A stretch of DNA of 64,000 nt from Pirellulales bacterium (GTDB lineage: Bacteria > Planctomycetota > Planctomycetia > Pirellulales > PALSA-1355), in assembly GCA_963733035.1 (NCBI GenBank), contig CAVTBU010000010.1:96001-160000 (forward strand), written 5' to 3'. The notes under the pieces were generated by a model, which saw only the letters and a program-made list of their open reading frames with translations, ran no database searches and was not told where the DNA came from. The translations under genes and the position numbers were made by a program. This document shows, piece by piece, positions 37,803-54,879 of the stretch (positions are counted from its first letter, which is position 1; the number at the start of each line of letters is the position of its first letter).

Positions 37803-39215
37803 ATGGACACTGTCAATCAGGTGACGGCTCGCGCTGCCGAGCTGTTTAAAGCGATGAACCCCACCGCGCGGCTGCTGGCTGCGCTGTCGGCGGCTCTGAT
37901 CGTGGTGAGCCTGATCTGGCTGTTTGGCCGGCACTTGGAGCCGAGCGAAGTTTACCTGATGGGGGGCCAACCGTTTTCTCCCGCCCAGCTGCGGCACATG
38001 GAAAGCGCTCTCGGTCAGGCGGGCCTCGGCGACTATGAAGTCGAAGGTACGCGGATGCGCGTGCCGCAAGGGCAACAGGCAAAATACATGGCTGCCCTGG
38101 CCGAGGCCGGCGCGCTACCGGCCGACTTTGGCGAGTATCTGCAAAAGGCCGTCAATACCAGCAGCTTTATGCTCTCCGGCCCGCGGCAAGAGGCTCAACT
38201 CAAAGTCGCCATCCAGAGTGAATTGCAGGGGGTGATCAACAACTTCCATGGCATCGAGCGCTCGTCCGTGCAGATTGCCGAAGAGACCAGCCAGGGATTT
38301 CCCCGCACGAAAACTGTTACCGCCTCGGTCGGCGTCCAGCCCAACGGCAAGCAGAAGCTCGACGAACGAACCGTTTCGGCCATCCGTTGGATCGTGGCCA
38401 GCGCCTGGGGCGGGCTCAAGCCCGAGAGTGTGACGGTTGTCGACTGGAGCAGCTCGCGGCTGTTTGCCGGCCCGCTCGACGGCAACGGCCCGGCCGCGGG
38501 TGCCTACGCGGACAACAAGAAGCAACTCGAACTCGATTGGGAAGAGAAGATTGTCCGGTTACTCGGAATCGCCGGTGCCGTCGTTACGGCCAATGTCGAA
38601 CTGAGCGACGATGGACATGCACCGCGTCAGGTCTCGGTGTCGGTCGCCGTCCCGCAAGCCTACTTTGAAGCCGTGTGGCAAGAGCAGTACGGCGCGCCGG
38701 CCGGCAAACGACCGTTGAAGCTCGATCCGGCGGCCTTCGCCCAACTCCAACAGAGCGAGAGCGAACGAATCAAGCAGGCGATCGTCCCTCTGTTGGTGAC
38801 GGCCGATTCGGCGGTGGATCGAGATTCGCTGGTCGCCGTGAGCACGATTTACGCCGCAGCCGCGCCAGCCGCGGCACAACCCGGCTACCAACAGGTGGCA
38901 CTCGCCTGGCTGGCCGAGAACTGGCGAGCGGTCGGAGTGGGCGTTTTGATTCTGGTCGGATTGGTGATGTTGCGATCTGCGTTCGGCGCGGCCGATCCAA
39001 CGCCTGCGGTGCAAAACGAGTCGCCGGACGGCAATCAGCAGTCGCTAGTACTTGTGACGGACGATGAACACGAGCCATCGTCGACAGGCGGTGCGCCGAT
39101 TCCGCCGCCGCACATTCCTGCCGAGGCGCGGCGGGCCGAGCTGGCCGAAATGATTCGCCAGGATCCGGAGGCCGCCGCAAGCGTGCTTCGAACCTGGCTA
39201 GGCAACGCGAGCTAA
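37803..39215 (+). CDS. fliF: Flagellar MS-ring protein FliF, shortened (beta-collar apparently absent)
   Basis: TM1, ring-building motifs (MRVPQGQQAKYMAALAEAGALP; TASVGV; GLKPESVTVVD), TM2, C-terminal IRQDPEAAASVLRTWL; first gene before fliG-fliH-fliI. Confidence 0.8.
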   Translation: MDTVNQVTARAAELFKAMNPTARLLAALSAALIVVSLIWLFGRHLEPSEVYLMGGQPFSPAQLRHMESALGQAGLGDYEVEGTRMRVPQGQQAKYMAALAEAGALPADFGEYLQKAVNTSSFMLSGPRQEAQLKVAIQSELQGVINNFHGIERSSVQIAEETSQGFPRTKTVTASVGVQPNGKQKLDERTVSAIRWIVASAWGGLKPESVTVVDWSSSRLFAGPLDGNGPAAGAYADNKKQLELDWEEKIVRLLGIAGAVVTANVELSDDGHAPRQVSVSVAVPQAYFEAVWQEQYGAPAGKRPLKLDPAAFAQLQQSESERIKQAIVPLLVTADSAVDRDSLVAVSTIYAAAAPAAAQPGYQQVALAWLAENWRAVGVGVLILVGLVMLRSAFGAADPTPAVQNESPDGNQQSLVLVTDDEHEPSSTGGAPIPPPHIPAEARRAELAEMIRQDPEAAASVLRTWLGNAS

Positions 39216-39218
39216 CCC

Positions 39219-40208
39219 ATGACGACGACAGAGCGCAACGTCCGCAAAGCGGCCATCTTGCTGGCCTGCCTCGACGACGAGCATGCTGAAACGCTGTTGC
39301 GCCAAATGTCGCCGGCGCAAGACCATGTGTTGCGTCAAGCCGTGGAACTTCTGGGCGAGATTGACCGGGCGGAACAGGAAGACGTGATCGAGGAGTTTTT
39401 CCGCGTCGGGCTCTTGATACCGGATTCTGACCTGGCCGGTATTGAACTCGATGCGCAGCTACCGCACACACTGACGCTTGGTATCACGGAGGCCAGTACG
39501 ACCGGGGCCACGCCGTTTCGCTTCCTGCATGAAGCCCCCCCGCATAAGCTCGTGCCGTTTTTGGAGCGTGAGCATCCGCAAACAGTGGCGGTTGTCGTGT
39601 CTCACCTGCCAGCCGATCGCGCCGCCGAAATCCTGGCGCATCTGCCCGGCGAGTTGCAGATCGACGTGGCCCGCCGGCTGGTCGACCTTGAGGAGACGGA
39701 TCCCGAGGTTTTGCAGGAAGTCGAACGGGGGCTTGAGTCGTGGTTGTGCTCACAAATTCACGGTGATCGTCCCAAGCGAGACGGCGTGTCGGCGCTGGCA
39801 AACATCCTGAGCGCCGCCGACCCTCAGGCACGACATCACATACTGTCGAACCTTGCCCGGCATGACCGGCGGCTGGCCGAAAAGTTGGAAGCACCGGCCG
39901 CGCCTCCGCTTTCGTTTGCGGATTTAGAGTGCATGGATTCGGCGTCGCTGGCCGTTGTTTTGCATCACGCCGAACGCGAGTTGTTGGTATTAGCTTTGGC
40001 CGGCGCCGGCCCCGAATTCTGCGAGCGAGCGCAGAGCCTGTTGGGTGGCCAGGGGATGGCGATACGACAGGCTCTACGTCATCTGGGGCCGACACGGCTC
40101 AGCGACGTCGAGGAAGCCCAGCGTCAATTGGCCGAACTGGCTCGATATCTGGAACAACGTGGCGAAATCGTGCCCGAGGTGCGTGGGCGATTGAGCCTGG
40201 CAATTTAA
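39219..40208 (+). CDS. fliG: Divergent FliG-family protein
   Basis: RKAAILL, PFRFL, EHPQTVAVVVSHL, DGVSALANIL, LGPTRLSDVEEAQ. Confidence 0.88.
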   Translation: MTTTERNVRKAAILLACLDDEHAETLLRQMSPAQDHVLRQAVELLGEIDRAEQEDVIEEFFRVGLLIPDSDLAGIELDAQLPHTLTLGITEASTTGATPFRFLHEAPPHKLVPFLEREHPQTVAVVVSHLPADRAAEILAHLPGELQIDVARRLVDLEETDPEVLQEVERGLESWLCSQIHGDRPKRDGVSALANILSAADPQARHHILSNLARHDRRLAEKLEAPAAPPLSFADLECMDSASLAVVLHHAERELLVLALAGAGPEFCERAQSLLGGQGMAIRQALRHLGPTRLSDVEEAQRQLAELARYLEQRGEIVPEVRGRLSLAI

Positions 40209-40237
40209 CGCTAAACTCTTTCTTTGGTGATTGACGC

Positions 40238-40891
40238 ATGCCACGCGTACTGAAAGCTCCACCCACATCCGAGGCGATGGAGTTTTTGACATTTGCCTTT
40301 GACGACTTGGAGGAGTCGGCTCGTTCGCAACTCGAAGCGGCGCGTCGCGAAGCCGCCGAACTGCTGACCGCGGCTCGCCAGGAAGCCGAGCAATTGCGCC
40401 GACAAGCCGAGGAGGACGGTCGCGCTGCGGCCGGCCAGGCGATCGAACAAATCATTGCCGAGCGGGTTGCCACGCAAGTGGCAACGACCATGCCGGCGCT
40501 CGATCAGGCGGTTGCCGACCTGCGCGCCGCCAAAGCCGACTGTCTGGTTCGTTGGGAAGAAGCCGCGCTAGGCGTGGCCACGGCGATTGCCGCTCGCGTC
40601 ATTCGCCGTGAGGTCTCCCATTCGCCGGAAATCAGTTTGTCGCTCGTTCGTGAGTCGCTCGAACTGGCGGCCGGGAGCACCGATTTGCAGTTGCGCATGC
40701 ACCCCGACGACCTGGCAGTGCTCGGGGCGGAGGTTGAAGATCTGCTTGGTCAACTTGTGCGTAGTGGCGAGAGGGCGCTCGTGGCGGATGCCACGATCAC
40801 GCGCGGGGGCTGCCGCGTTGACACGCGTTCGGGCAGCATCGACCAGCAATTCGAGGCCCAATTGGCCCGCATCGAACAGGAACTGCGTTAG
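40238..40891 (+). CDS. fliH: FliH/SctL ATPase stator stalk
   Basis: Ala/Glu-rich helix, LRMHPDDL, DATITRGGCRVDTRSGSID. Confidence 0.88.
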   Translation: MPRVLKAPPTSEAMEFLTFAFDDLEESARSQLEAARREAAELLTAARQEAEQLRRQAEEDGRAAAGQAIEQIIAERVATQVATTMPALDQAVADLRAAKADCLVRWEEAALGVATAIAARVIRREVSHSPEISLSLVRESLELAAGSTDLQLRMHPDDLAVLGAEVEDLLGQLVRSGERALVADATITRGGCRVDTRSGSIDQQFEAQLARIEQELR

Positions 40892-40917
40892 TAATTCACC
40901 GCCGAGGACTTTCGCCG

Positions 40918-42243
40918 ATGCCACTGCTGCTCGACAACCTCCACGCTCGGCTGCGCGAAATGGTGCCGGCCGACTTGCGCGGCCGCATCGTGCGTACGTC
41001 GGGGTTGACGGCCGCCGTCGCCGGGTTTCCGGCACCAGTCGGATCGCTGGTAAGCATCGAGCGGCACTCGGGCGAGCCGCTATCTGCGGAAGTGATCGGG
41101 TTTGTCGATGATTTGACCCTGGTTTCGTTGCTCGACCGAGCGCAAGGTCTCAGGCACGGTGACCACGTTAGGTTGGTGAAAACCTCGCGATGGATTCGCG
41201 TCGGTGACGGATTGTTGGGCCGCGTGATCGACGCCCGCGGAAAGTGCATCGACGGTTCGCCACAGCCGGCACTCGAGCACCGCGCTCCGCTCGAGCGAAC
41301 CGCACCGTCGGCCATCTGCCGCCCGCGTATCGATGAGTCCATTTCGACGGGTGTGCGCGCGATCGACGGCTTGCTCACCTGCGGCAAAGGTCAACGGCTG
41401 GGCATCTTTGCCGGATCGGGCGTCGGCAAGAGCATGACACTCGGCATGATCGCTCGATATACGACGGCGGATGTGAACGTCGTGGCGCTCGTCGGCGAGC
41501 GCGGCCGAGAGGTGAACGAGTTCCTGCAGCGCGACCTGGGGCCTGGGCTGGCCAAGAGCGTTGTCGTGGTAGCCACCAGCGATGAACCGGCATTGGCGCG
41601 CGTGCAGGCGGCGCTGGTTGCAACCACAGTGGCCGAATTCTTTCGCGATCAGGGAAACGACGTGCTGTTGATGATGGATTCGCTCACGCGGCTGGCGCTC
41701 GCGCAACGCGAGATTGGTCTGGCCGCCGGCGAGCCGCCCACGACGCGCGGTTTCCCACCGTCGACATTCGCGCTATTGCCGCGGTTGCTCGAACGGGCCG
41801 GCCGCACGGAGCAGGGGAGTATCACCGGGCTTTACTCGGTGCTCGTCGAAGGGGACGACCCCCAGGAACCCATCGCCGACACGACGCGCGGTTTGCTCGA
41901 TGGGCACATCTGGTTGTCGCGAGCGCTGGCCGCGGCGGGGCACTATCCTGCGATCGACGTGCTGGAAAGCGTGAGCCGCTCGATGCATGACGTTGTCGAC
42001 GACGATCATCGGCAAGCCGCCCTGGAAGTCCGCCGTCTGTTGGCCACCTATCGTCAACATGAGGACCTGATCGCCGTCGGGGCTTATCGCCAGGGAACCA
42101 ACGCCAACGTCGATCGGGCGATCGCACTGCGAGACGAGATTCACACCTTGCTTCAGCAGCGCGTGGATCAGCGCGCAAGCGTGTCGCAGGCCAAGGAAGC
42201 TCTCGTTCGGCTGGCCGCCCGGGCTACGCAGGATGCGCCATGA
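40918..42243 (+). CDS. fliI: FliI/SctN export ATPase
   Basis: GQRLGIFAGSGVGKS, GERGREV, LLMMDSLTR, GEPPTTRGFPP, LDGHIWLSR. Confidence 0.95.
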   Translation: MPLLLDNLHARLREMVPADLRGRIVRTSGLTAAVAGFPAPVGSLVSIERHSGEPLSAEVIGFVDDLTLVSLLDRAQGLRHGDHVRLVKTSRWIRVGDGLLGRVIDARGKCIDGSPQPALEHRAPLERTAPSAICRPRIDESISTGVRAIDGLLTCGKGQRLGIFAGSGVGKSMTLGMIARYTTADVNVVALVGERGREVNEFLQRDLGPGLAKSVVVVATSDEPALARVQAALVATTVAEFFRDQGNDVLLMMDSLTRLALAQREIGLAAGEPPTTRGFPPSTFALLPRLLERAGRTEQGSITGLYSVLVEGDDPQEPIADTTRGLLDGHIWLSRALAAAGHYPAIDVLESVSRSMHDVVDDDHRQAALEVRRLLATYRQHEDLIAVGAYRQGTNANVDRAIALRDEIHTLLQQRVDQRASVSQAKEALVRLAARATQDAP

Positions 42244-42710
42244 AACCGTTTGCCTTTCGTCTCGACGGCCTACTGAAATTGCGCATCGCCCAGCGCGACG
42301 TCGAGCGCGTCGACCTGGCGGCCGCACTTGCCGAGCAGGTTCGGCTGACCGCTCTGTGCCATGCGCTGCAAACGCAATTGTCGCGCCTGCTAGCCGAACA
42401 GCGTACCGCGCGGATTGCCGGTACCGTGCTGCTTGAGTCGCTGGTCCGATTAGAGCACTTCGCAGCAGCCACACGGAGTAAGCTCGCCGCGGCCAACGGA
42501 GCTCGGATCGCGGCAGAGCAGCGAGTGGCCCATTGTCAGCATGCGGTGGCAGCAGCCGAACGCGACGTTGACGTGCTCGAAAAGCTGCGCGAGCAAGCGC
42601 AGGTTCGCCATCAAAGGGAACTCGCACGCCGACAGGTCAAGCGGCTCGACGAGGTTGCCGGGCAATGTTTTGTCCGTGCGGCGGTGCGGTCATCCGGCGG
42701 ACCACGCTAG
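42240..42710 (+). CDS. fliJ: Flagellar export protein FliJ
   Basis: FAFRLDGLLKLR N-terminus, LEKLRE, KRLDE; ATGA overlap with fliI. Confidence 0.8.
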   Translation: MKPFAFRLDGLLKLRIAQRDVERVDLAAALAEQVRLTALCHALQTQLSRLLAEQRTARIAGTVLLESLVRLEHFAAATRSKLAAANGARIAAEQRVAHCQHAVAAAERDVDVLEKLREQAQVRHQRELARRQVKRLDEVAGQCFVRAAVRSSGGPR

Positions 42711-42960
42711 CATCACGGTGCTGGAGCTAGTCCACTGGCCGGCGGTATTTCGCGATCTGACCTTGATCGAAAATTGCTTTTCGAGGACAAACCCGCCCGA
42801 CTCTGGCCCAGGCACATCTCGCCAGAGTTGTCGTTCGACAACACATATCCTTTTGCAAATCGTCCACGCGTATCTGGCGCATTGCCGCCGCGCGCTTTGC
42901 GGGTGATTCGATCCGCTGGCCGCACGCCGACATGTGGCAGCCGTGGCAGGATTCAATAGC

Positions 42961-43209
42961 ATGGTCGATCGCATGCCATCGCCGCGCGGCGACAGGAATT
43001 TAAGAATTGAATTGGGACGGGCGCGGCTGCCGTGGCAGGAGTTTACGAAGTTAGCCAAGGGGAGCGTGGTTTCGCTGGAGACGCTGGTGGACGAGCCCGT
43101 CGATATCGTCGTGGGTGGCCGGCTGGTGGCCAAAGGCGAGGTGCTCGTGCTTGACGGTTGCTTTTGCATTCGCGTTACGCAGTTGCTCGGTGGCAAGGGA
43201 GCCGCTTGA
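42961..43209 (+). CDS. fliN: Short FliN-like (SpoA domain) protein; start uncertain
   Basis: LRIELGRARL..LAKGSVVSL..DEPVDIVVGGRLVAKGEVLVLDGCFCIRV. Confidence 0.8.
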   Translation: MVDRMPSPRGDRNLRIELGRARLPWQEFTKLAKGSVVSLETLVDEPVDIVVGGRLVAKGEVLVLDGCFCIRVTQLLGGKGAA

Positions 43210-43261
43210 GCGCAAGTTCGAAGTCCGAAGGCACCCGTGGGTGCGATGAGGAGGTGGCAGG

Positions 43262-44017
43262 ATGCCACGCGTCGCAAGCTTGCTGATGTTAGGGCTGGTG
43301 CTAACGGCATTCGCAGCTGGTGGTGCCGCCGGACAGAGTCCCGCTCAAAGCGGCGGGCAGGTCCGTTGGGGCGACCGGCCGGTGAGCCCACCGCAAATCC
43401 CATGGACGGGCGGTACCGCGGTTGCCCGGCCCGTCGAACCACCGCGGCTCTTGCCCGCGGGATATCAATCGCCGCCCGGAGGGGCGAGTAATACGGCGGC
43501 ATATCGCCGCCAGGTGCGCACGGTGGGCGGTCAACAGCCGCTGCCGCTGCCGCCTCAGCCAGGCGGCGTGGCGGCGCCAGGAGCCAAACCGCAGCTGCCT
43601 CCGCTGGTCACAGGCGCGGCCAGCCTGGGCATCGTGTTAGGGCTGTTTTTATTGGTGGTGTGGAGCGTACGGCGCGGGATGCCCAGGGGCTCGGGCATAC
43701 TACCCAGCGGGGCCGTTGAAGTGCTGGGACGCGCGCCGATCGCGGGCCGACAAAACGTGCACCTGGTGCGCTGCGGCAACAAGATCGTGTTGCTGAGCAT
43801 TACGGCGACCAGTGTTGAGACGCTGACCGAGATTTCGGACCCCGACGAGGTCGATCGACTGCGCGAACTTTGTCGCCAAACTTCCGCGCCGGCCACGGCG
43901 TGGCAGCATCTGATGGGCCGACTTGGCAACCTGGGGCAAGGCGTCGACATTCAGGAAAGGCGGCCGGACCAAATCGATTTCGGCCACCTCGAAGTCGGCA
44001 CTCAAACTCGGGCTTGA
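43262..44017 (+). CDS. fliO: FliO with Pro-rich N-terminal extension
   Basis: SLGIVLGLFLLVVW TM followed by VEVLGRAPIAGRQNVHLVRCGNKIVLL..LTEISDPDEV. Confidence 0.8.
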   Translation: MPRVASLLMLGLVLTAFAAGGAAGQSPAQSGGQVRWGDRPVSPPQIPWTGGTAVARPVEPPRLLPAGYQSPPGGASNTAAYRRQVRTVGGQQPLPLPPQPGGVAAPGAKPQLPPLVTGAASLGIVLGLFLLVVWSVRRGMPRGSGILPSGAVEVLGRAPIAGRQNVHLVRCGNKIVLLSITATSVETLTEISDPDEVDRLRELCRQTSAPATAWQHLMGRLGNLGQGVDIQERRPDQIDFGHLEVGTQTRA

Positions 44018-44025
44018 GGAGCGGC

Positions 44026-45105
44026 ATGACCATGAGCCAATTCTTACGACCGAAGAAAAGCGGCTGGCCGTTGGCCGGCGGGCTAGTCGCGCTTTGTGTT
44101 TTCGCATTGGTGTTGTGCTGGGCGCATTGCGCGGTGCGCGCGATGCCGATGGCGCAAGAGCCTGCCGCGGTGGAAGCCCCGCCGGTGGTTGCGCCTGTGT
44201 CGACGGCGGCTGCCGCGATGCCGAGTCCGCCGGGAGTGCCACCGATCAAGCCCGTTCCGCTGGAAACGAAAACGGACCAAGCGCACGGGGGCGAATCGGA
44301 GCTGCTGTCGCCACCAGGCACCGATCTTTCGGCCCCACAACCGATTGAAAACGCCGCTCAGCTACCGACGGATCCGCCGTCCGCTCAAGATGCCCACCAA
44401 TTTTCCTTGCCGGGCGGCCTTGGCGGACCGGAGCAGTGGACGAGCCCCGAGGGAATTTCCTCGGCCCTGCAAACGCTGGCGCTGTTGACAGTCGTCAGCC
44501 TGGCACCGGCGGTGCTGATGATGACTACTTGTTTCGTGCGAATTGCCATCGTCCTGGGGCTGTTGCGACAGGCGCTTGGCACGCAGCAGCTGCCTTCGAA
44601 CCAGGTTGTGACGTCGCTGGCGCTCTTCATGTCGCTCCTGATTATGGCGCCGGTTTGGAACCAGGTTTATGAAGACGCCGTGGTGCCGTACGCCGCGCAC
44701 GAGATCTCGCTGCACCAGGCCTGGGATACGGGCATCAAGCCGGTTCGCGGATTCATGAGCGCGCAGATCGAGCGGACAGGCAATAGCGGCGACGTGTGGT
44801 TGTTCTACAAATACTTGCCGGCCGACACGCCGGCACCGTCGAGCTACAACGACGTGCCGCTGACGGTACTTATGCCGGCCTTCATGCTCAGCGAACTGAA
44901 GACGGCGTTTCTGATCGGCTTTCAGGTGTTCCTGCCGTTTCTCGTGATCGACCTGGTCGTTTCGAGCGTGACGATTTCGATGGGCATGTTCATGGTTCCG
45001 CCCGTGCTCGTCTCGTTGCCGATGAAGTTGCTGCTATTCGTACTGGTCGATGGCTGGCACCTGGTCGTGGGGATGTTGATGGATAGCTTCCAACTTGTTG
45101 CCTGA
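44026..45105 (+). CDS. fliP: Export gate protein FliP with long Pro-rich N-terminus
   Basis: GAGGAG then ATG 44026; MMTTCFVRI..LRQALGTQQLPSNQV, PAFMLSELKTAF, MGMFMVPP, KLLLFVLVDGW. Confidence 0.95.
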   Translation: MTMSQFLRPKKSGWPLAGGLVALCVFALVLCWAHCAVRAMPMAQEPAAVEAPPVVAPVSTAAAAMPSPPGVPPIKPVPLETKTDQAHGGESELLSPPGTDLSAPQPIENAAQLPTDPPSAQDAHQFSLPGGLGGPEQWTSPEGISSALQTLALLTVVSLAPAVLMMTTCFVRIAIVLGLLRQALGTQQLPSNQVVTSLALFMSLLIMAPVWNQVYEDAVVPYAAHEISLHQAWDTGIKPVRGFMSAQIERTGNSGDVWLFYKYLPADTPAPSSYNDVPLTVLMPAFMLSELKTAFLIGFQVFLPFLVIDLVVSSVTISMGMFMVPPVLVSLPMKLLLFVLVDGWHLVVGMLMDSFQLVA

Positions 45106-45116
45106 GGTTCGCGCGA

Positions 45117-45383
45117 ATGAATCCCCAAGATGCCGTCGATTTGGGTCGCCAGGCCACCAACATAGCCTTGATGTTGGGAGGTCCGGTGCTGCTTTCGGCG
45201 CTGGTCGTGGGACTGATCGTGGGTTTGCTACAGGCGGCCACTGGCGTGCAGGAACAAACCGTGTCGTTCGTACCCAAGCTGGTGGCCGTGGTGGTTGCAC
45301 TCAGCCTGATGCTGCCCTGGCTGATCGAGCAGATGGTGCAGTATTCGCATGACGTGATTACGAACATTCCGCTGTCGCTCTAG
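45117..45383 (+). CDS. fliQ: Export gate protein FliQ
   Basis: 88 aa; GLLQAATGVQEQTVSFVPKL. Confidence 0.93.
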   Translation: MNPQDAVDLGRQATNIALMLGGPVLLSALVVGLIVGLLQAATGVQEQTVSFVPKLVAVVVALSLMLPWLIEQMVQYSHDVITNIPLSL

Positions 45384-47084: not shown

Positions 47085-48245
47085 TTAGCCCGCGGTTTGG
47101 GCCGGCGTGGGCTGGCAGTAGCCATAGTGACGCATGTGAGGTCCCCAGCGCTCGTCGATTTTGCTTCGCAAGTCGTCGGGAATGTCGTAGCTGCCGATGC
47201 GATAGTTCTGCCGATCTTTGAAGTATTCTTCGAGCTTGGGCCGCGCCGTCTCGAATTCGCCCAATTCCAGATGTTCGTATAAGGCCTGCATCCGGCCGAT
47301 CGGATCACGCACCAGGTCTTCGTAGCGAACCTCGAAAAACCTTGCTGGGTCCAACAACTCGCGATCGCGATCGAAGGCCTGATACATCATCTCGAAGCAG
47401 GAAAAGACATATTCTTCCAACTGATCGTGCCGGGCTTCCTGCAACGCTTCGAATTTGTAAAGCGTCTTCCAGAGCTTCACGGTCGAGCCGAAGAGCGGAT
47501 ACGGATCGCGCACGATGTGCACGAAGCGAGCATCCGGAAACAATTCGAGCAGCGTCTTGATACGCCCGGTATGTGGGGGCGACTTGAGAATGATTCGCTT
47601 GGGGCTGCGAAACGTGACGCGCTTCAAAAACCACTCGAGCCCCTGTTTCCATGCGGCGAGGTCCCGGTCGCTGAGCCCCTCGAGCGTCAGGTACTGCTGG
47701 TAGTCGGTCGACTCGTTGGGGAAGGCCATCTTCAAATACGGGGATGGCAAGCCCATGTTGCACAGCGCGAATTCGTCTTCCTGCGGCTTGTCAAAGCCGG
47801 CGGCCATGTGGTCCATCGGCCGCTTCGAAGGGAGCAGGAATTTGAACTTGGTGAGGAACCAGTCGCTGATCAGAAAATGGTTGGGCACCAGGCACTGGTA
47901 GGTCGTCGGAAACGTGTATCGCCCGTCGAGCACCATCAGCTCATGCAACAGCGTGGTGCCCGAACGCCAATGACCGACGATGAAGATCGGCGCGTCCTTG
48001 ATTTGCATCCGCTCCAGGTGCCGCTTGAGCAGGAGCTCTTGGAGCGGCTTGAGCGTGGAGTTCATCAGCGATGCGCCAGTGACCGTGGCGGCCAGCCCCC
48101 ATTTGGTCAGGCCGATCCGGAACTTGTTTCGGGCCAGTAGCCTGATCCAAGTGCCGAAGCCCATGCCGTGCCAAAAGCGGGCGTGCCAGAAGTGATAAGG
48201 GTTCACTTCGACGCGTTTCGACTTTGGATCGGCGCTGGTTGCCAT
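47085..48245 (-). CDS. PAPS-dependent sulfotransferase
   Basis: PIFIVGHWRSGTTLLHEL (5'-PSB loop), LKSPPH, FPDARFVHIVRDP, VRYEDLVRDP. Confidence 0.9.
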   Translation of the reverse strand: MATSADPKSKRVEVNPYHFWHARFWHGMGFGTWIRLLARNKFRIGLTKWGLAATVTGASLMNSTLKPLQELLLKRHLERMQIKDAPIFIVGHWRSGTTLLHELMVLDGRYTFPTTYQCLVPNHFLISDWFLTKFKFLLPSKRPMDHMAAGFDKPQEDEFALCNMGLPSPYLKMAFPNESTDYQQYLTLEGLSDRDLAAWKQGLEWFLKRVTFRSPKRIILKSPPHTGRIKTLLELFPDARFVHIVRDPYPLFGSTVKLWKTLYKFEALQEARHDQLEEYVFSCFEMMYQAFDRDRELLDPARFFEVRYEDLVRDPIGRMQALYEHLELGEFETARPKLEEYFKDRQNYRIGSYDIPDDLRSKIDERWGPHMRHYGYCQPTPAQTAG

Positions 48246-48480
48246 GAGTTTCTCCGCGGTTGCATGCCGTTCGGCACCGGCTCGTCCGTCAAAGACACGT
48301 AGTCGAGCGGTCGCCGCCGGCAAGCGCGCCGGCTCAAGGGGCGATGCGTCCTCCGCGGACCCGCGCGTCGGACCTCCGCCGTCTGCCGGATGGAATGTTG
48401 CCAGCGTCAAAGATAACAGTCTCCGTTCGAGAGGGCCACCGCCGCAGGGGCGTCTTGCCCGAGGCCGTTTTTCATCGTTT

Positions 48481-49002
48481 TTATTGCAAATCGCCCGCGC
48501 TGGCGTCGCTTCGCCGTGCCACGTGCTGCAGTGCTGCCTGCATGGCCATCATCACCTGGTGCCCTGGCTTCTTGCCGACCACCCGTTCCAGCGGTACACC
48601 CCGCGGTGAGAGGAATTGGATCGTGGGATAGCCGGTCACCTGAAATTGCCGGCAGACTTCCGGTTCGACGTCGGCATCGATCAGGACACAGACAAATTGG
48701 TTGGAAAGACTAACGACCTGCGGGTGCGTAAAGGCTTCCTCGGCCATCTGCCGGCAATACTCGCACCATTTGGCCGTGAAGTACAACAGCATGGGCTTCG
48801 ATTGCCGTACACTTTCGGCGTAGCCCTGGCGGTATCCGACGACGAACTGCAGTTCGCCGTGCGCCAAATAACTGGCTCCCACGGCGCGGCCATCTGCCGG
48901 ACGTTGTTCGACGGCGCTGTCTGGTGTCTCGACACCAAGCTCACAGCCGTACTTGAGGGCCAGCAGTGCTAGCAAACAAGCCCCGAACGCAAAGTATTTC
49001 AT
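48481..49002 (-). CDS. Exported thioredoxin-family protein
   Basis: N-terminal anchor; KPMLLYFTAKWCEYC; VTGYPT cis-Pro motif. Confidence 0.85.
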   Translation of the reverse strand: MKYFAFGACLLALLALKYGCELGVETPDSAVEQRPADGRAVGASYLAHGELQFVVGYRQGYAESVRQSKPMLLYFTAKWCEYCRQMAEEAFTHPQVVSLSNQFVCVLIDADVEPEVCRQFQVTGYPTIQFLSPRGVPLERVVGKKPGHQVMMAMQAALQHVARRSDASAGDLQ

Positions 49003-49499
49003 GATGCTTTGGGGAAATCGATAGAACGGCGGGGCACAGTGGCAAGGTGGCGTCGCGCGGCAGGTAAACGGGCGGATGACAACGAGGCGCGCACGCAACA
49101 TATCGTCGCGCCGAGAAAGTGAACTTGAGCGAGCTGCGACGATCGGTACCGAACGGCGTCCCGAATGCCGCATGATTCCCCCCTGGCTCTCATGCGGAGC
49201 CGTGTACCATTGGAAGGTGCAGCAACACGAGTTGCGTCGCAACTTCGGCGGTCTATCGATGCAATCAGGGGGTTGGTGGCTGGGCTGTCCAAACTATGAA
49301 AATCTCGCAAGGGCTATTTCCCCCAGAGGTGGGCATCGGTGCGACTGCACTTGGGCGTGCTAGCGGCCTATTTCCCGGTTCGCGTGGGCGCAAGACCGAC
49401 CTGGACACTGGCACGGGGTTTCAGTAACTTCCCGCCTCCTTTCTGCCACACGCACCTCGTCGTTCTGACAACACCGTTTACCGCCGGAATCGAATTCGG

Positions 49500-51593
49500 A
49501 TGGCTACCGCTGCCGTGCCACGCGTGCCCCGTTCGCTAGCGCAGGTGCAAGACCTCGTCTTGCCCGTCGCTGCGATTGCTAGCGTGCTGGTGATTCTGGT
49601 GCCGCTGCCGACACCGGTGATGGACTTACTGCTAGCGGCCAACATTGCAGTGGCCGTGATCGTTCTGTTGACGACGATCTACGTCCGCACGCCGCTGGAG
49701 TTCAGCGTGTTTCCGACGTTGCTTTTGGCCACCACGCTCTCGCGGTTGGTGCTCAACGTGGCCACCACGCGGCTGATTCTGAGCGACGCGGGTGATCGCG
49801 GCCTGATGGCGGCCGGCGGTGTGGTGCGCAGTTTCGGCGAGTTTGTGGCAGGCGACAAAATCGTCGTGGGGCTGGTGATCTTCGCGATTATCGTCGTGAT
49901 TCAGTTCGTGGTGATCACGAAAGGCGCCACCCGCATCAGCGAAGTTGCGGCCCGGTTTGCACTGGATGGCATGCCGGGGCGGCAAATGGCCATCGATGCG
50001 GATCTGGCGGCCGGCAACATCAGCGAGAAACAAGCCCAGACGCGTCGTCAGGAAGTGACCCAACAGGCCGACTTCTTCGGCGCCATGGACGGTGCCAGCA
50101 AATTCGTCCGCGGCGACGCAATCGCGGGCATCATCATCACGCTGATCAACATCCTGGGCGGACTGGTTATCGGCATTGTCGAATATCGGATGGGCATTGG
50201 CGAAGCCGCCGATTTGTTCACCCGCCTGACCATCGGCGATGGTTTGGTCAGTCAGATTCCCGCGTTCTTGATTTCGCTGGCTGCCGGCTTATTGGTGACG
50301 CGCAGTTCCTCGAGCGTCAACCTGCCGGTTCAATTTCTGAACCAACTGTTTTCACGCCCGCAAACGCTGGCCGTGACGGGCGTCTTTCTGGGTCTGTTAA
50401 TTTTCACGAAACTGCCGGCGGTGCCGCTGGTGGGATTGGGAGGCGGTTGTGTCGGACTGGCCATGCTACTCACCCGTCGCCAGCACGAAGCCGAAGCATT
50501 GGCCCGACAACAGGCGGCGGTGCCCCAGAAGCTGCGCGATCAGCGCGTCGAGGACTACCTGGCCGTTGACCCGATGGAAATCGAGATCGGTGCCGGCTTG
50601 ATTCGGCTGGCCGACCCGAAGCGTGGCGGAGATCTGCTCGACAGGATTCAACGTTCGCGCCAGGCGATTGCGGCCGAGATGGGGCTGATCATGCCCAAGG
50701 TTCGAATCCGCGACAATCTGCGGCTCGGCGCGCGGCAATATCGCATCAAGATCGCCGACCTGCCGGTTGCCGAAGGCGAATTGCAGCCCGCTATGTTGCT
50801 GGCCGTCGATTCCGGCAATGCCAGCGGAAACATCAGCGGACTGGCGACGCGCGATCCGGCGCACGGCATGCCCGCCACCTGGATCGAGCCGTCGGCGCGA
50901 CAACAGGCCGAGTCACAAGGCTATCACGTTGCCGAACCGATTAGCGTATTGGTTAACCACCTGACCGAGACCGTGCGGTCGCACGGCGACGAAATACTGA
51001 CGCGGGACGCGACTCGGCACCTGGTCGATGAGCTCAAGAAGACGTCGCCTACGGTGGTTGACGAGCTGATTCCCGACCAGATGAAGCTGGCCGAGGTGCA
51101 GCAGGTGTTGCAGCTCTTGCTGCGCGAGCAAGTGCCCATCCGGCAACTCGCGAGCATCCTCGAAGCGTTGGGCGAAGAGGTCTCGCGCACCAAGGATCCG
51201 ATCGCGCTTAGCGAACGAGTGCGGCACCGGCTGGCCCGGGCCATTTCGACGCGGTATCGCGACAAGCATGGACGGCTGGCCGTTGTCACGCTCGACCCGG
51301 CACTGGAGGAGCGAATTCGGGCCGCGACACAGCGCGTCGGCGGAACGCTTACGGTTTCGCTCTCACCGCAAGTCGTCGAGACTCTTTGTCAAAGGTTAGC
51401 CGGTGAGTTGGCGCGGCATGCCGGCTCCGGACGAACAGCCATCGTGTTGGTCAGCCCGGCGATACGACCGGCGCTCAAACAAATCACGATGGCCGCGCTG
51501 CCGCGTTTGGTCGTGCTGAGCTACGACGACGTGACACGCGACACGCAATTGGAATCCTTGGGATTGGTCGAATTGGAATCCGTCGACGAATGA
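49500..51593 (+). CDS. flhA: Export gate protein FlhA
   Basis: RISEVAARFALDGMPGRQMAIDADL, FFGAMDGASKFVRGDA, TIGDGLVSQIP; full cytoplasmic domain; 697 aa. Confidence 0.96.
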   Translation: MATAAVPRVPRSLAQVQDLVLPVAAIASVLVILVPLPTPVMDLLLAANIAVAVIVLLTTIYVRTPLEFSVFPTLLLATTLSRLVLNVATTRLILSDAGDRGLMAAGGVVRSFGEFVAGDKIVVGLVIFAIIVVIQFVVITKGATRISEVAARFALDGMPGRQMAIDADLAAGNISEKQAQTRRQEVTQQADFFGAMDGASKFVRGDAIAGIIITLINILGGLVIGIVEYRMGIGEAADLFTRLTIGDGLVSQIPAFLISLAAGLLVTRSSSSVNLPVQFLNQLFSRPQTLAVTGVFLGLLIFTKLPAVPLVGLGGGCVGLAMLLTRRQHEAEALARQQAAVPQKLRDQRVEDYLAVDPMEIEIGAGLIRLADPKRGGDLLDRIQRSRQAIAAEMGLIMPKVRIRDNLRLGARQYRIKIADLPVAEGELQPAMLLAVDSGNASGNISGLATRDPAHGMPATWIEPSARQQAESQGYHVAEPISVLVNHLTETVRSHGDEILTRDATRHLVDELKKTSPTVVDELIPDQMKLAEVQQVLQLLLREQVPIRQLASILEALGEEVSRTKDPIALSERVRHRLARAISTRYRDKHGRLAVVTLDPALEERIRAATQRVGGTLTVSLSPQVVETLCQRLAGELARHAGSGRTAIVLVSPAIRPALKQITMAALPRLVVLSYDDVTRDTQLESLGLVELESVDE

Positions 51594-51638
51594 TCGAGTT
51601 GTGTTAACCACTAGCGGAAAGCCGCAGGCGGCTTCGCC

Positions 51639-52775
51639 ATGAACGTCAAGACTTATCGCGCCAAAACGATGCAGGAAGCACTGGCCCTGGTGCGCAACGA
51701 CCTGGGGTCCAAAGCCTCCGTATTGCGCACTCGCGAGATTCGTCCGCGGGGCCTGTCGCGTTTGTGGAGCGCGGTTGGCATGATCGAAGTCGTTGCCTCG
51801 GCGAATGTGTCCGTACCGAGTCGACTGCCAAGCCGGCAGCCAATTATGTCGCCCGTTGCCGTGCCGGCAACACACGCGGGCCTGGATCTTTCGGCGGCAT
51901 CTTCGGAAGTGCGATTGCCACAAGGTTCTGCGGCACGTTCGGGCGGAGACAAGCACGAGCCGTTGGGCGTCCTCTCGCAGGTTCTGGCCGAGCTGCTGGC
52001 CACGGGACTCGACGAGTCTTATGCCCGAGAGCTGATCACGCGCGTTCGTCGTTTGCACGGCGAAGCGATGGTGGCCGACTCGGCAACGATGCGGCAGTTG
52101 TTGGCTGCCGCCATTGAAAAGGAGATTCGGGTCGCGGGCCCGATCTCGACGACGCCCGGGCAGAGACGTTTGGTGGCTCTGGTTGGCCCAACCGGCGTGG
52201 GCAAGACGACGACGCTGGCCAAGTTGGCGGCACACTATCGGGTGTTTGAGAATCGCCGCATCGGTTTGATCACCTGCGACACGTATCGCGTGGCCGCCGT
52301 CGAGCAACTGCGGACGTATGCCGACATTATCGACGTGCCGCTGGAAATCGCCTCCACGCCGCGTGAAGTCAAACAGGCCGTGGCGCGGATGTCGGACGTT
52401 GACCTGGTGCTGATGGATACCGCCGGTCGCAGTCCGCACGACGCGGCAAGAATTCAGCAGCTCAACCTACTCCTGTCCGAGGCAGCGCCCGACGAAGTTC
52501 ACCTGGTCCTTTCCAGCGCGGCTAATGCGGACGGCCTATGCGAGACGATCGAACGATTCGCACCTGCTCGTACGACCGCGCTGCTGCTAACCAAACTGGA
52601 CGAAGTCGCATCGTTGGGAAGCGTGTTCAACGTAATTCGACGTCGGCACATACCGCTTAGCTACCTGACGTATGGTCAGGACGTGCCGGCCGATATTGTC
52701 GTGGCCGATCCCGCACCGCTGGCGCGGGCGGTGGTCGGATTGGTCCGGCTGGCCGGACATCAACCTCCCCGTTAG
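51639..52775 (+). CDS. flhF: SRP-type GTPase FlhF
   Basis: [51 protein letters not shown]. Confidence 0.93.
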   Translation: MNVKTYRAKTMQEALALVRNDLGSKASVLRTREIRPRGLSRLWSAVGMIEVVASANVSVPSRLPSRQPIMSPVAVPATHAGLDLSAASSEVRLPQGSAARSGGDKHEPLGVLSQVLAELLATGLDESYARELITRVRRLHGEAMVADSATMRQLLAAAIEKEIRVAGPISTTPGQRRLVALVGPTGVGKTTTLAKLAAHYRVFENRRIGLITCDTYRVAAVEQLRTYADIIDVPLEIASTPREVKQAVARMSDVDLVLMDTAGRSPHDAARIQQLNLLLSEAAPDEVHLVLSSAANADGLCETIERFAPARTTALLLTKLDEVASLGSVFNVIRRRHIPLSYLTYGQDVPADIVVADPAPLARAVVGLVRLAGHQPPR

Positions 52776-52784
52776 CACAAAACT

Positions 52785-53618
52785 ATGTTTCGCGATCAAG
52801 CCACCGAACTCCGAGAACTAGTTCAGCACCGCACGCCCGCGGGCGGTGCCTCAGGAGAGATTGCGCCGCTGGTCGTGGTCGGCGGTGGAAAAGGGGGCGT
52901 CGGAACGACAACCATCGCGGTGAATCTGGCGGTTGCTCTTGCGCGCGAAGGACGCCGCGCCGTGTTGGTCGATGCCGACCTGGAGCACGGCGGGCAAATA
53001 CACTTCACGTCTCAGCGCGACCCGGGCAACATCCTGGACGTGCTCAGCGGACGGCGCGGCTTGCACGAAGTCCTCGCGCGCGGACCAGCGGGCGTGCAAG
53101 CGGTGACGGGCGCCTGGTCCGCAACCGAACCCAACGCGTGCTCCGCCGCGCGGCAGGCCAGATTCGTCGATCAACTCAAGTCGCTCGCGCCGCACGCAGA
53201 AGTGATTGTGGTCGACGCCGGCAACAGCCGCACGCCGTTTGTGCGCTTGTTCTGGCACGCGGCCGATGTGATTTGGGCGGTGACCACGCCCGAAGATGCC
53301 GCGGTTTTGCAATGCTACGCGGCCATCAAGGCCAATTTAGCCGGATGCAGTCGGCCGCCGCTACAAACGCTGGTCAATCGAATCGACGAACGGCTGGCTG
53401 GCGACGTGCACGCGCGGCTGGCCGAGGCCTGTCACCGATTTCTCGCCGTGCGCGTCGACGATGCTGGTAGCGCCGCAGTTTGCGAGCCGCGGGACGAGGT
53501 CTTATTTCACACCGGCTCGTTGGCGGAGCATGCCTTCGACCGTGCGGCCGAACGGTTATGGGCTTACCTGCAACGGGGTGACCGCGGCCTGTTGGACCGC
53601 GATCGGGGAGTTGCGTGA
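52785..53618 (+). CDS. flhG: FlhG/MinD-like ATPase with degenerate Walker A
   Basis: DQATELR activator helix, GKGGVGTTT, LVDADL, VTTPE; lies between flhF and fliA. Confidence 0.8.
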   Translation: MFRDQATELRELVQHRTPAGGASGEIAPLVVVGGGKGGVGTTTIAVNLAVALAREGRRAVLVDADLEHGGQIHFTSQRDPGNILDVLSGRRGLHEVLARGPAGVQAVTGAWSATEPNACSAARQARFVDQLKSLAPHAEVIVVDAGNSRTPFVRLFWHAADVIWAVTTPEDAAVLQCYAAIKANLAGCSRPPLQTLVNRIDERLAGDVHARLAEACHRFLAVRVDDAGSAAVCEPRDEVLFHTGSLAEHAFDRAAERLWAYLQRGDRGLLDRDRGVA

Positions 53619-53718
53619 GGCGCTAGCGGTGCTGTCCAAACGATCAAAAATGTTCATGCGTAGCGCATGAGAAACTGACACAGAAATCCCGAGGAATCGT
53701 ACGAAGCACGAAATAAAC

Positions 53719-53781
53719 TCAATCCCGGGCTTTGGCTGGCCGATAACAACGGACACCTCTTTCAGCCGCGCCGTCCGATAA
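53719..53781 (+). promoter_or_regulatory. Sigma28-type promoter upstream of fliA
   Basis: TCAA (53719-53722), 16 nt, perfect GCCGATAA (53739-53746); a second -10-like TCCGATAA at 53774-53781. Confidence 0.55.
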
Positions 53782-54087
53782 ACTTTGACGACTGCGGTGA
53801 GTTTAACGCGAAAGTGAGCGAGGTCTTCGTGAATCGCCAGCGAGGCACATCGAGTCGTCAGACCGCCCCAGGCGCCCTCGGAAGACTCTACGGCAAAGCC
53901 GGAATCGAGTTTCAGCATCCGCCGAAACGGCATGCGGCGCTATTTTGTTCTTTCGCTGCCAGAGTGAGCGGACTCTGGTGCAAACCATAACCCGGGCAGC
54001 GTTTCGCCCCGGCCAGGATGGCCGCGAAACGACGGCCCAACGACGACACTCTACGCACAAAACGCCAGACGCGAGTAATCACGGAGG

Positions 54088-54879
54088 ATGGTAATGGCGA
54101 TGACCACGATGGCGCCCGAGGACGTGGCGCAGATTTGGCAACAGTTCAAGCAGGATATGGAGAACCAGGAGCTCCGTAACCGGCTGGTGGAAATCTATCT
54201 GCCGCTGGTCAAGTACAACGGCGAGCGGATCTGGTCGCGGTTGCCTGAGGGCGTGGAACTGGACGACCTGATTTCGGCCGGTGTGTTCGGCCTGATGGAC
54301 GCCATCGACGCCTTCGATCTATCGCGCGGCGTCAAGTTCGAAACCTATTGCGTGCCGCGGATCCGCGGTGCCATGCTCGACGAACTGCGGACGATGGACT
54401 GGGTGCCGCGTCTGGTCCGCTCGAAAGCCAGCAAGCTCAACGAGGCAATCAAGACGCAGGAAGCCCGTCTGGGCCGCGCTCCCAGCGAAATCGAGTTGGC
54501 CGAGCACATGGGCATCTCGGTTCCTGAGCTCGAAAAGATGGTGATGGAGGCCAACGCCGTCAACCTGATCAGCCTGAACAAGAAGTGGTATGAGACCGAC
54601 AGCTACAAGGACGTTCGCGAGATCGACATCCTCGAGGACAAAAAGGGAGAAGATCCGACGCGACGGATCCAGAAGCACGACCTGATGCGGCTGGTTACCA
54701 AAGGGCTCAACCGCAACGAACGGCTGATTATCATCCTCTACTACTACGAAGAGCTGACGATGAAAGAGATCGGCGCCACGCTCGATCTCTCGGAAAGCCG
54801 CGTCAGCCAGATGCACAGCTCGATCGTCCAGCGTCTGCAAGGCCAACTCCGTCGGCGCAGGCCGGAGTTTGGAACCTAG
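54088..54879 (+). CDS. fliA: FliA/WhiG-family sigma factor (sigma28)
   Basis: DDLISAGVFGLMDAID, KFETYCVPRIRGAMLDELRTMDWVPR, LTMKEIGATLDLSESRVSQMH. Confidence 0.96.
   Translation: MVMAMTTMAPEDVAQIWQQFKQDMENQELRNRLVEIYLPLVKYNGERIWSRLPEGVELDDLISAGVFGLMDAIDAFDLSRGVKFETYCVPRIRGAMLDELRTMDWVPRLVRSKASKLNEAIKTQEARLGRAPSEIELAEHMGISVPELEKMVMEANAVNLISLNKKWYETDSYKDVREIDILEDKKGEDPTRRIQKHDLMRLVTKGLNRNERLIIILYYYEELTMKEIGATLDLSESRVSQMHSSIVQRLQGQLRRRRPEFGT

Follow-up and report, generated by a model that had tools for sequence, protein, structure and literature searches.

The stretch of DNA considered here, called the window throughout, consists of 64,000 nucleotides from a Pirellulales bacterium of the phylum Planctomycetota (assembly GCA_963733035.1, contig CAVTBU010000010.1, positions 96,001 to 160,000) and contains within positions 37803–54879 a cluster of 15 intact flagellar open reading frames (ORFs), all on the + strand. 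An original prediction, made from the letters of the window, took this cluster for a type III secretion system (T3SS) that derives from the flagellum and serves export only. Whole-genome family searches and tblastn comparisons bear out a flagellum-derived apparatus from which rod, hook, filament and stator are missing, and what they establish directly is its gene content, the precision of the excisions, the loss of a domain from each of two proteins, its conservation across genera and its repetition in separate lineages.

The source genome (G000; all other G numbers denote comparison genomes) has an assembly of 6.65 Mb in 10 contigs, with completeness at 92% and contamination at 2.9%. The cluster genes, named from Pfam and NCBIfam matches and found intact where the prediction had placed them, are listed below by window position together with two other genes that lie among them.

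37803..39215, + strand: fliF, MS-ring protein of 470 amino acids (Pfam YscJ_FliF at 59–218 only)
39219..40208, + strand: fliG, rotor/C-ring protein (Pfam FliG_N, FliG_M and FliG_C; all three domains)
40238..40891, + strand: fliH, ATPase tether (Pfam FliH, 1.7e-21)
40918..42243, + strand: fliI, export ATPase (Pfam ATP-synt_ab and T3SS_ATPase_C; NCBIfam FliI/YscN subfamily above cut-off)
42240..42710, + strand: fliJ, ATPase stalk, poorly conserved (Pfam FliJ, 1.9e-8)
42934..43209, + strand: fliN, 91 amino acids (Pfam FliMN_C, 3e-18)
43262..44017, + strand: fliO (Pfam FliO, 1.5e-10)
44026..45105, + strand: fliP, gate pore subunit of 359 amino acids (NCBIfam fliP, 249 bits, cut-off 217)
45117..45383, + strand: fliQ (Pfam Bac_export_3; NCBIfam fliQ above cut-off)
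45395..46174, + strand: fliR (Pfam Bac_export_1, 7e-54; NCBIfam 162 against a cut-off of 169)
46202..47068, + strand: flhB, 288 amino acids, membrane domain and linker only (Pfam profile positions 2–239 of 335)
47085..48410, − strand: sulfotransferase gene between flhB and flhA (Pfam Sulfotransfer_3, 6e-36)
48481..49242, − strand: thioredoxin-like gene between flhB and flhA (Pfam Thioredoxin, 2e-14)
49500..51593, + strand: flhA, export gate and cytoplasmic ring domain, full length (Pfam FHIPEP, 5e-241, positions 2–656 of 657)
51639..52775, + strand: flhF, GTPase of the signal recognition particle type, intact (NCBIfam FlhF above cut-off)
52785..53618, + strand: flhG, MinD/ParA-type ATPase (Pfam CbiA, ParA and MipZ; named from its synteny with flhF)
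54088..54879, + strand: fliA, sigma-28 (NCBIfam FliA_WhiG, 265 bits, cut-off 190)

The export-apparatus core is complete, comprising FliP, FliQ, FliR, FlhA, the membrane domain of FlhB and the FliH, FliI and FliJ proteins with their Walker motifs. FliI contains AGSGVGKS (Walker A) and LLMMDS (Walker B), FlhF has the G1, G3 and G4 motifs and a TKLD string, and FlhA has KFVRGD and GDGL and scores 794 bits against an NCBIfam cut-off of 772, all in line with the motifs the prediction had named for these three proteins. Two of its details need rewording. The “FHIPEP region” of FlhA holds as a Pfam domain matched over nearly its whole length but not as a literal string, which a regular-expression search did not find, and the methionine gate of FliP is present in the motif GMFMVPP but reads M-F-M rather than three methionines. 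FliP starts at 44026, which is not the earliest start codon in its long reading frame, and has a signal-like N-terminus and a Pro/Ala-rich linker. The product of 52785–53618 gave no match to an FlhG-specific model. Flagellar NCBIfam models beat injectisome models every time (FlhA 794 versus SctV 550, FliP 249 versus SctR 175), with the same preference for FliQ, FliR, FlhB and FliI. No injectisome-type core was found and the genome holds a single FHIPEP gene; secretin and needle genes were not searched for.

The gaps in gene order on which the prediction was built are real: no flgB, flgC or fliE stands ahead of fliF, and fliJ is separated from fliN by 224 bases that hold no gene. A flagellated member of the same family, G004, is assembled in one contig with both of its flagellar clusters annotated and served as the reference. 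Its cluster 1 starts flgB-flgC-(fliE)-fliF-fliG-fliH-fliI-fliJ-orf-fliK-flgD-flgE-flbD-motA-motB-fliL and ends fliP-fliQ/R-flhB-(sulfotransferase, thioredoxin)-flhA-flhF-flhG-orf-fliA, and the window has this same frame minus flgB-flgC-(fliE) and minus fliK through fliL. Cluster 2 of G004 reads hemC-flgF-flgG-flgA-flgJ-like-flgN-flgK-flgL-fliW-...-fliC, while at this place in the source genome hemC is followed directly by fliW-csrA. Judged by gene order, the axial and stator losses are excisions at the ancestral places of two clusters. The prediction had also counted fliM among the missing genes, and it is indeed absent between fliJ and fliN but has not been lost, being found as a solitary gene among housekeeping genes on contig C5:1291960-1292955. 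Since fliM is solitary and far from the clusters in flagellated G004 as well, its separate position is ancestral; in the order, flagellar genes are distributed among no fewer than three places.

Family searches of the whole genome gave zero matches to Flg_bb_rod (PF00460), Flg_bbr_C (PF06429), Flagellin_N (PF00669), Flagellin_C (PF00700), FliE and FliS, and nothing above cut-off for MotB_plug. Five MotA_ExbB matches look by eye like ExbB/TolQ proteins. Bac_export_2 (FlhB) and FHIPEP (FlhA) matched once each, in both cases the window copy, and neither an axial or stator gene set nor a second fliF, flhB or flhA turned up in the rest of the genome; a find of that kind would have spoken against the prediction. 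When all 44 ORFs of the two G004 clusters were used as tblastn queries, 27 had no match in the source genome, among them all 18 named as axial, hook, stator, chaperone or flagellin genes (FlgB, FlgC, likely FliE, FliK, FlgD, FlgE, FlbD, MotA, MotB, FliL, FlgF, FlgG, FlgA, FlgJ-like, FlgN, FlgK, FlgL and FliC). Matches fell only on retained genes, with identities of 66% for FliI, 73% for FliP, 70% for FlhA, 85% for FliA and 45% for FliG; G004 FliF matched at 44% in two pieces and G004 FlhB at 47% over residues 4–237 only.

A complete flagellum whose axial genes are unassembled or too divergent to be recognised is hardly credible as an explanation of these absences. The incompleteness of the genome, its 10 contigs and the scattering of flagellar genes in this order leave some room for it, as does the capacity of short Pfam models and tblastn to overlook divergent proteins, for which FliH provides a case. 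Both ancestral positions are assembled, however, with junctions in place of the genes, and three congeners that are 97–100% complete also gave no rod or flagellin matches. The rod, hook and flagellin models matched in 4–5 control genomes and in 20 of the 41 genomes of the order; the rod models found 3–6 rod-type genes in 17 of these 20 relatives and 1–2 in the other three, all of which are less than 80% complete.

Two of the retained proteins have each lost a part, as the prediction had proposed. The first is FliF, which consists of ring-building motif (RBM) 1, RBM2, a collar-less RBM3 core, the second transmembrane segment and a conserved C-terminal FliG-binding helix. It scores 54 bits against the NCBIfam fliF cut-off of 130, over profile positions 4–257 of 555, and its alignment with G004 FliF splits into two parts (q1–270 and q357–479). 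An alignment of 19 sequences places the gap after the strand that closes with “...VTANVEL” and before the strand “P(R/K)xV(S/T)VSVAVP..YYE”. Against solved FliF chains, query residues 28–272 align with chain residues 59–301 and 313–467 with 416–577, so that about 74 more residues are skipped in the solved chain than in the query. The missing block sits between RBM3a and RBM3b, and the available part of one structural report assigns residues 271–381 of Salmonella FliF, between RBM3a and RBM3b, to the beta-collar that houses the proximal rod (PMC11739650). An AlphaFold2 model built from a 14-sequence alignment, of moderate confidence (mean predicted local distance difference test score 68.9), has a helix at 232–254, a strand at 260–267, a 6-residue turn, a strand at 274–284, helices and a strand at 344–349, which suggests an RBM3 core with nothing at the collar position. 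Foldseek matched this model to the Salmonella FliF rings (E 8e-11). Profile, pairwise, 19-sequence and structure-chain alignments thus agree that the collar is gone, and the protein appears to be a family member by descent from which one defining part was deleted.

The second protein is FlhB, which ends about 40 residues after the conserved linker “GDPQ(I/V)AARRR” and scores 159 bits against an NCBIfam cut-off of 349. The loss of its switch domain is real, the Pfam profile stopping before the NPT(H/E) site. In all six aligned flagellated relatives FlhB continues with “TNPTELA” and about 90 more residues, this site being, as we take it, the equivalent of the autocleaving NPTH of model FlhB proteins. 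A separate gene for the C-terminal domain was found neither by the genome-wide Bac_export_2 search nor by tblastn with G004 FlhB. Four genomes that lack axial genes and have a full-length FlhB carry the motif in altered form, as NPAE, SPEG, DSSR or NQAE. Among the 120 best relatives of FlhB in a large protein collection, 39 do not exceed 290 residues, some of them on very short contigs. As an observation apart, the short FlhBs of G000–G003 and G007 share a new C-terminal end, ..(A/S)VD(S/A)IR, which follows a variable tail (window 46950–47068).

The order-level comparison covered 41 genomes including the source genome; most relatives appear to be metagenome bins and several of the set are fragmented. 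FliF was matched in all 41, FlhB and FlhA in 40 each and FliM in 39, compared with 20 for the rod C-terminal domain and 20 for flagellin (19 above cut-off). Twenty genomes have neither a rod C-terminal domain match nor a flagellin match above cut-off, namely G000–G003, G005–G007, G009, G010, G013, G014, G016, G017, G020, G023, G024, G027, G029, G031 and G038. We refer to these as axial-less; all 20 have FlhB and 16 of them are at least 90% complete. The association of short FliF, short FlhB and axial-gene loss that the prediction had anticipated is found across this set. Eleven short FlhB frames (244–297 amino acids) are not cut by a contig end and all belong to axial-less genomes, the frame of G006 being cut. 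The FliF gap is present in 15 of the 20, larger in G009, and in none of the genomes with axial genes; of the exceptions, G005 and G031 have a contiguous FliF, G017 a fragment, and G027 and G038 match only the N-terminal part.

The reduced gene order and orientation are identical in G001, G003, G016, G009 and G013, and are found in G002, G007, G014 and G023 as far as their contigs reach. The reduced cluster is syntenic in at least six genera, at only 40–75% protein identity. FliI is 68–75% identical in axial-less relatives and FlhA 66–80% identical in the loci of 11 relatives, and FliJ was not detected by tblastn in G013 and G014. A quick maximum-likelihood tree of FlhA was made from 30 genomes under LG+G4 with Shimodaira–Hasegawa approximate likelihood ratio support, and is to be read as a gene tree and not a species tree. 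In it the family's axial-less members fall into a single clade (support 98 without G005, 83 when it is included), G029 is placed with flagellated G037 (98), and G031 with flagellated G036 and G026 (95). Parsimony on this tree gives at least three events of axial loss, at least two of collar loss and at least two of FlhB truncation, which are minimum numbers and not statistics, kin not being independent. The boundaries of the collar deletion differ between G023 (where it is partial), G029, G013/G014 and the group of G016 and G000.

Genomes at different degrees of reduction can be recognised. G005 keeps FliE (Pfam 1.6e-15; L098:6250-6819, − strand, upstream of FliF), a collar-bearing FliF and a full-length FlhB, along with a frameshifted remnant of fliL next to fliJ (L098, about 469–595), and looks like the earliest stage. 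The order of events suggested by these genes is that the FlhB motif was mutated first, that collar loss and FlhB truncation followed, and that the FlhF GTPase was lost after these. FlhF is cut to about 100 N-terminal residues in the three congeners G001, G002 and G003 and in G007, which makes its GTPase dispensable and polar placement not general; the polar placement by FlhF that had been predicted is weakened accordingly, and the tie to budding or cell-cycle development that the prediction raised as possible is speculative. The most reduced loci belong to G027 and G038, from two other families and 97–99% complete, in which no FliI or FliM match was found. These loci are down to FliP and the N-terminal half of FliF, to which G027 adds a short FlhB; FlhA is retained. 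Beside this it was seen that the FliF ORF of G027 (632 amino acids; L096 = G027:C138:92000-111999) has its C-terminal half replaced by what looks by eye like a FliG/MgtE-type helical domain, and it may be a FliF-FliG-like fusion.

In a phylum-wide sample of 151 genomes, filtered at 90% completeness, FlhA was found in 90 and FlgD in 84. Nine genomes have FlhA without an FlgD match (the source genome, G043, G059, G085, G121, G151, G153, G167 and G181), four of which, G085, G121, G153 and G167, belong to one family; the FlhA match is full-length in all eight besides the source genome. As a single-marker lead, this hints that further planctomycete families may have axial-less systems of this type.

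Regulators of the flagellum have been retained along with the export genes. A solitary ORF of 99 residues on contig C7 encodes FlgM, with a Pfam match of 4e-9 and an NCBIfam score of 41.2, just above the cut-off of 40.75. With the sigma-28/FlgM pair thus present by profile match, the tie to sigma-28 in the original prediction is strengthened. FlgM is found in 39 of the 41 genomes, missing only from G024 and G030, both less than 90% complete, and its N-terminus MQIYGPSQLHG is kept in 12 of 13 inspected frames from flagellated and axial-less genomes alike, G037 being the one that differs. In G027 and G038, where reduction has gone furthest, flgM and flhA are no more than about 2.5 kb apart. FliA is the most conserved gene of the cluster, being 92–95% identical in the loci of 11 relatives across genera and 85% identical to that of G004. 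FliW occurs in 35 of the 41 genomes, among them all axial-less genomes of 90% completeness or more, and in the source genome it is kept with CsrA at hemC-fliW-csrA in the absence of flagellin. In model bacteria FlgM/sigma-28 and FliW/CsrA couple gene expression to flagellar secretion, and it appears that two secretion-coupled regulatory circuits have outlived the structure on which they report.

A non-coding stretch upstream of flgM, ...CGCGCTCGCGAGGTC..TGACAyGGAATGCGGCGCCGGyAAG.....ATTCCAnGAGGTT..., lies about 330–140 nucleotides ahead of the gene (L048:1878-2052, − strand, G000 contig C7). It is kept in 9 of 11 aligned genomes from several families, flagellated or not, the other loci being L051, L054 and L057–L062. 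It is conserved without codon periodicity, has no Rfam match, and may be a promoter with a long structured leader. A second motif, (T/A)GACTCCCC, is present in the 5' leaders of fliC (G004 L034; G036 L031) and of flgM (G000, L048, about 75 nucleotides upstream). It is complementary to GGGAGG-type ribosome-binding sites just downstream and might form an anti-Shine-Dalgarno hairpin or serve as a CsrA target. The leaders of G004 fliC and G000 flgM have an 11-mer in common that is present only twice in the genome; we considered it as a promoter and set it aside, as it looks like the anti-Shine-Dalgarno stretch instead.

Taken together, the retained parts suggest how such a machine could work. The collar-less FliF would form an MS ring around FliPQR, the N-terminal part of FlhB and FlhA, and FliG, FliM and FliN would form a C ring at which FliH, FliI and FliJ dock. 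The gate would then move unfolded protein across the inner membrane, and with neither FliE nor a rod to seal FliPQR the channel would open into the periplasm. There would be no switch from early to late substrates, FlhB having no C-terminal domain and FliK and the hook being absent. FlgM is the only retained protein known elsewhere as a substrate, and a secretion-gated sigma-28 switch is therefore favoured, the regulon of which would no longer build a flagellum; further cargo is possible. Our preferred reading, to which we give a moderate probability, is that the cluster encodes a rod-less and switch-less derivative of the flagellar T3SS that is maintained by selection and probably exports FlgM to gate sigma-28.

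A number of points weigh against this reading. In model organisms export requires the C-terminal domain of FlhB, and FlgM, as a late substrate, does not leave before the switch has taken place, so that with an FlhB of this kind classical FlgM export may fail. The canonical sigma-28 promoter pattern had 15 scattered matches genome-wide that form no pattern and define no regulon, and no substrate candidate besides FlgM was found. As to the absences, the source genome is only 92% complete, and tblastn is insensitive to fast-evolving small proteins and has a known blind spot, the presumed FliH ORF of G004 giving no match though FliH is present in the source genome. There are also signs that erosion continues. 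FliJ has a dN/dS (ratio of nonsynonymous to synonymous substitution) of 0.42 for G001–G003, the GTPase of FlhF is gone from G001–G003 and G007, and FliI and FliM have no match in G027 and G038. The FlhA distance to the outgroup is 0.49–0.59 for flagellated family members, 0.57 for G005, 0.71 for G023 and 0.83–1.07 for the other axial-less members, FlhA having changed about 1.5–2 times more in the axial-less clade, which means that constraint has relaxed or shifted. In G024 the frames of FlhA, FliI and FliF are split and FlgM is not matched, where split frames, here as in G007, may reflect either decay or assembly error.

Some of these signs could be taken to mean that the cluster no longer functions and is slowly being lost, in line with the stepwise disappearance of the collar, the FlhB C-terminal domain, the FlhF GTPase and, in G027/G038, FliI and FliM, with the faster change of FlhA and with the split frames of G024. 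We consider this very improbable. The window's 15 flagellar genes are intact without exception, their synteny is kept across genera at 40–75% protein identity, and the same end state has been reached independently. A real pseudogene looks different, as with the FlhA match of G141, which has at least 17 stop codons (FlgD being present in that genome). Substitution rates, calculated by the Nei–Gojobori method, point in the same direction. For the pair G002–G003, with a dS of about 0.1, dN/dS is 0.047 for FlhA, 0.04 for FliQ, 0.13 for FliR, 0.17 for FlhB, 0.13 for FlhG and 0.02 for FliA. For G001–G003, with a dS of about 1 and so near saturation, the values are 0.076 for FlhA, 0.07 for FliQ, 0.086 for FliR, 0.095 for FlhB, 0.22 for FlhG, 0.02 for FliA, 0.22 for FliF, 0.16 for FliG, 0.17 for FliH, 0.09 for FliI, 0.11 for FliN and 0.14 for FliO. 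Neighbouring genes give 0.03–0.22 (in G002–G003, 0.04 for the sulfotransferase and 0.03 for a transporter), and values above 1 for the sulfotransferase and a major facilitator superfamily gene in G000–G016 are alignment artefacts and were excluded. The retained genes of the axial-less genus are under purifying selection, with dN/dS of 0.02–0.2 for most, and there is no ongoing decay in the genus; decay under relaxed selection, which would have spoken against the prediction, is not what these rates indicate. Slow decay and missed genes are both poorly compatible with the data.

It could also be that the rings and gate no longer export anything and act as a membrane scaffold or signalling platform, such as a landmark or a checkpoint. 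A scaffold could account for the retention of the whole C ring, including the C-terminal domain of FliG, without a stator, for the conserved FliG-binding helix of FliF, and for the loss of an FlhB domain on which export depends in model systems. Immediately ahead of the cluster, G004, G005, G023 and G031 have a histidine kinase gene, seen by eye also in G013 and G014. There is a precedent in Campylobacter, where, as far as the accessible text goes, a basal structure is sensed by a two-component system (PMC3760246). This kinase has no close ortholog in G000, however, the best match being 38% identical, and we do not count it as a part of the system. A comparison of the C-terminal helix of FliG between axial-less and flagellated genomes, aimed at relaxed stator-contact residues, showed no clear difference and is counted on neither side. 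The ATPase complex and every gate subunit are strongly constrained (dN/dS 0.09 for FliI, 0.04–0.07 for FliQ and 0.05–0.08 for FlhA), which is hard to understand without transport, and the most reduced relatives keep the gate without a FliI or FliM match, which argues that the channel is the indispensable part. For these reasons we regard a mere scaffold as rather unlikely.

If export is retained, its main purpose might be the secretion of non-flagellar cargo such as enzymes, toxins or surface proteins, with FlgM and sigma-28 as leftovers. The full ATPase-gate set that has been kept would fit this, and the retention of FliW without flagellin could mean that FliW has another partner. The consulted portion of a study of Lysobacter enzymogenes OH11 describes secretion of antifungal proteins and control of twitching that depend on the flagellar T3SS (PMC7688988); for Lysobacter, though, a retained hook-basal body is assumed there. 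Neither the cluster nor its immediate surroundings contain a candidate cargo gene in any of the relatives, and with no outer-membrane conduit (neither rod, L/P ring nor a second FHIPEP system) cargo would reach the periplasm at most. Secretion of this kind as the main task is thus improbable. The reading of a FlgM-exporting derivative can be extended to the whole order. It is quite possible, and we suggest it tentatively, that several Pirellulales-type lineages have independently produced a rod-less, stator-less and switch-less type III machine of the inner membrane, which would release proteins into the periplasm and serve mainly secretion-gated regulation (FlgM/sigma-28 and FliW/CsrA), the most reduced members keeping the gate and half of FliF.

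The system resembles the canonical flagellar T3SS of the Salmonella type in its proteins, in its typical operon order and in the fold of FliF, which is like that of the Salmonella rings. It differs in that no FliE, rod, hook, hook-associated proteins, flagellin, FliK, FlgD, MotA/B, FliL, FlgN or FliS were found in this genome and in that the FliF collar and the FlhB C-terminal domain are absent. The regulatory circuits of model organisms, the FlgM/sigma-28 checkpoint and the FliW/CsrA switch, have all four of their proteins here (FlgM, FliA, FliW and CsrA), while the hook-basal body, as the structure reported on, and flagellin, as the controlled product, are absent.

That non-flagellated bacteria can keep flagellar export genes is already known. 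According to the available sections of PMC3459982, some species that are not regarded as flagellated have flagella-like loci, and incomplete T3SS loci are mostly flagellar in origin (Abby and Rocha). The same sections describe non-motile Buchnera aphidicola, the reduced flagellar locus of which has been proposed to be a protein exporter (citing Maezawa 2006; Toft and Fares 2008). The Buchnera remnants, as far as described there, keep basal-body or hook parts, whereas the present system has no axial part any more, and its FliF and FlhB have been remodelled. Buchnera is moreover a reduced endosymbiont, in contrast to a free-living planctomycete with a 6.6-Mb genome. Lysobacter OH11 is closer in being non-flagellated and free-living, and in the portion of PMC7688988 at hand it is reported to keep and express flhA, flhB, fliI and fliP/Q/R. 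It has no fliC, yet it still secretes the hook cap FlgD, and its authors assume a hook-basal body; this portion of PMC7688988 mentions neither a truncated FlhB nor a collar-less FliF for OH11. The “short” and “long” loci of non-flagellar T3SS in Myxococcales are likewise without motility genes and secretin, long conserved and argued to be functional (PMC3459982, in the part available). They may be intermediates toward the injectisome (Abby and Rocha 2012, PMC3459982, same part). These loci belong to the injectisome clade, while the present system is flagellar by sequence and synteny and arose recently, several times, within a flagellated order. The literature on planctomycetes with partial flagellar gene sets, as far as it was searched and supplements apart, contained no description of such a case, and within the same scope the term “Planctomycet” is absent from a 2026 preprint on the ancestral flagellum (PMC13277936). 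What is new here is that no axial gene is left, that the collar is deleted and FlhB halved, and that one order contains a graded and repeated series.

What has gone from the two core proteins is precisely what serves the rod, in the case of the FliF collar, and the ordering of axial substrates, in that of the FlhB C-terminal domain. This amounts to a natural dissection of the T3SS into parts needed for export as such and parts needed only for building a flagellum, and provides concrete organisms for the proposed first step of T3SS exaptation. How a gate works with an FlhB that has no C-terminal domain is a question for specialists. If the reading of independent conversions is true, these genomes are living stages of a first step, otherwise hypothetical, that leads from the flagellum to a dedicated secretion system, and the FlhB C-terminal domain and the FliF collar serve axial assembly only.

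Several smaller features of the locus deserve mention. A conserved element, CGGATTGACC-N17-TACAAGTC, lies at 37668..37707 (+ strand), about 100–135 nucleotides upstream of fliF, and is aligned and kept in 5 of 10 axial-less genomes (G000, G001, G003, G016 and G009). It is a possible sigma-70-type promoter in the place of the ancestral flgB-flgC-fliE; a consensus promoter scan did not call it because its second hexamer ends in G. An ORF at 37246–37824 (192 amino acids), which overlaps the start of fliF, was rejected as a gene. It has no Pfam match and a dN/dS of 0.5–0.6, and those parts of it that are conserved fall on the conserved upstream DNA.

The sulfotransferase gene stands at the same place in 9 of 12 relatives' loci, including that of flagellated G019, the other three loci ending earlier. 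Its product is 69–75% identical in relatives and that of the thioredoxin-like gene 54–74%, and their place is kept in flagellated and axial-less genomes alike. The two genes are treated as conserved neighbours of the machine. A search of a contig collection for loci seeded with FliF returned one weak and unrelated match, labelled Gemmatimonadota. Elsewhere in the window, a HAMP histidine kinase gene followed by a gene for a sigma-54-dependent response regulator is found at 12005–14912 (+ strand), about 23 kb upstream of fliF, and two adjacent DUF1559 (SBP_bac_10) proteins are encoded at 25027–26926 (− strand), a family that is greatly expanded in and typical of planctomycetes.

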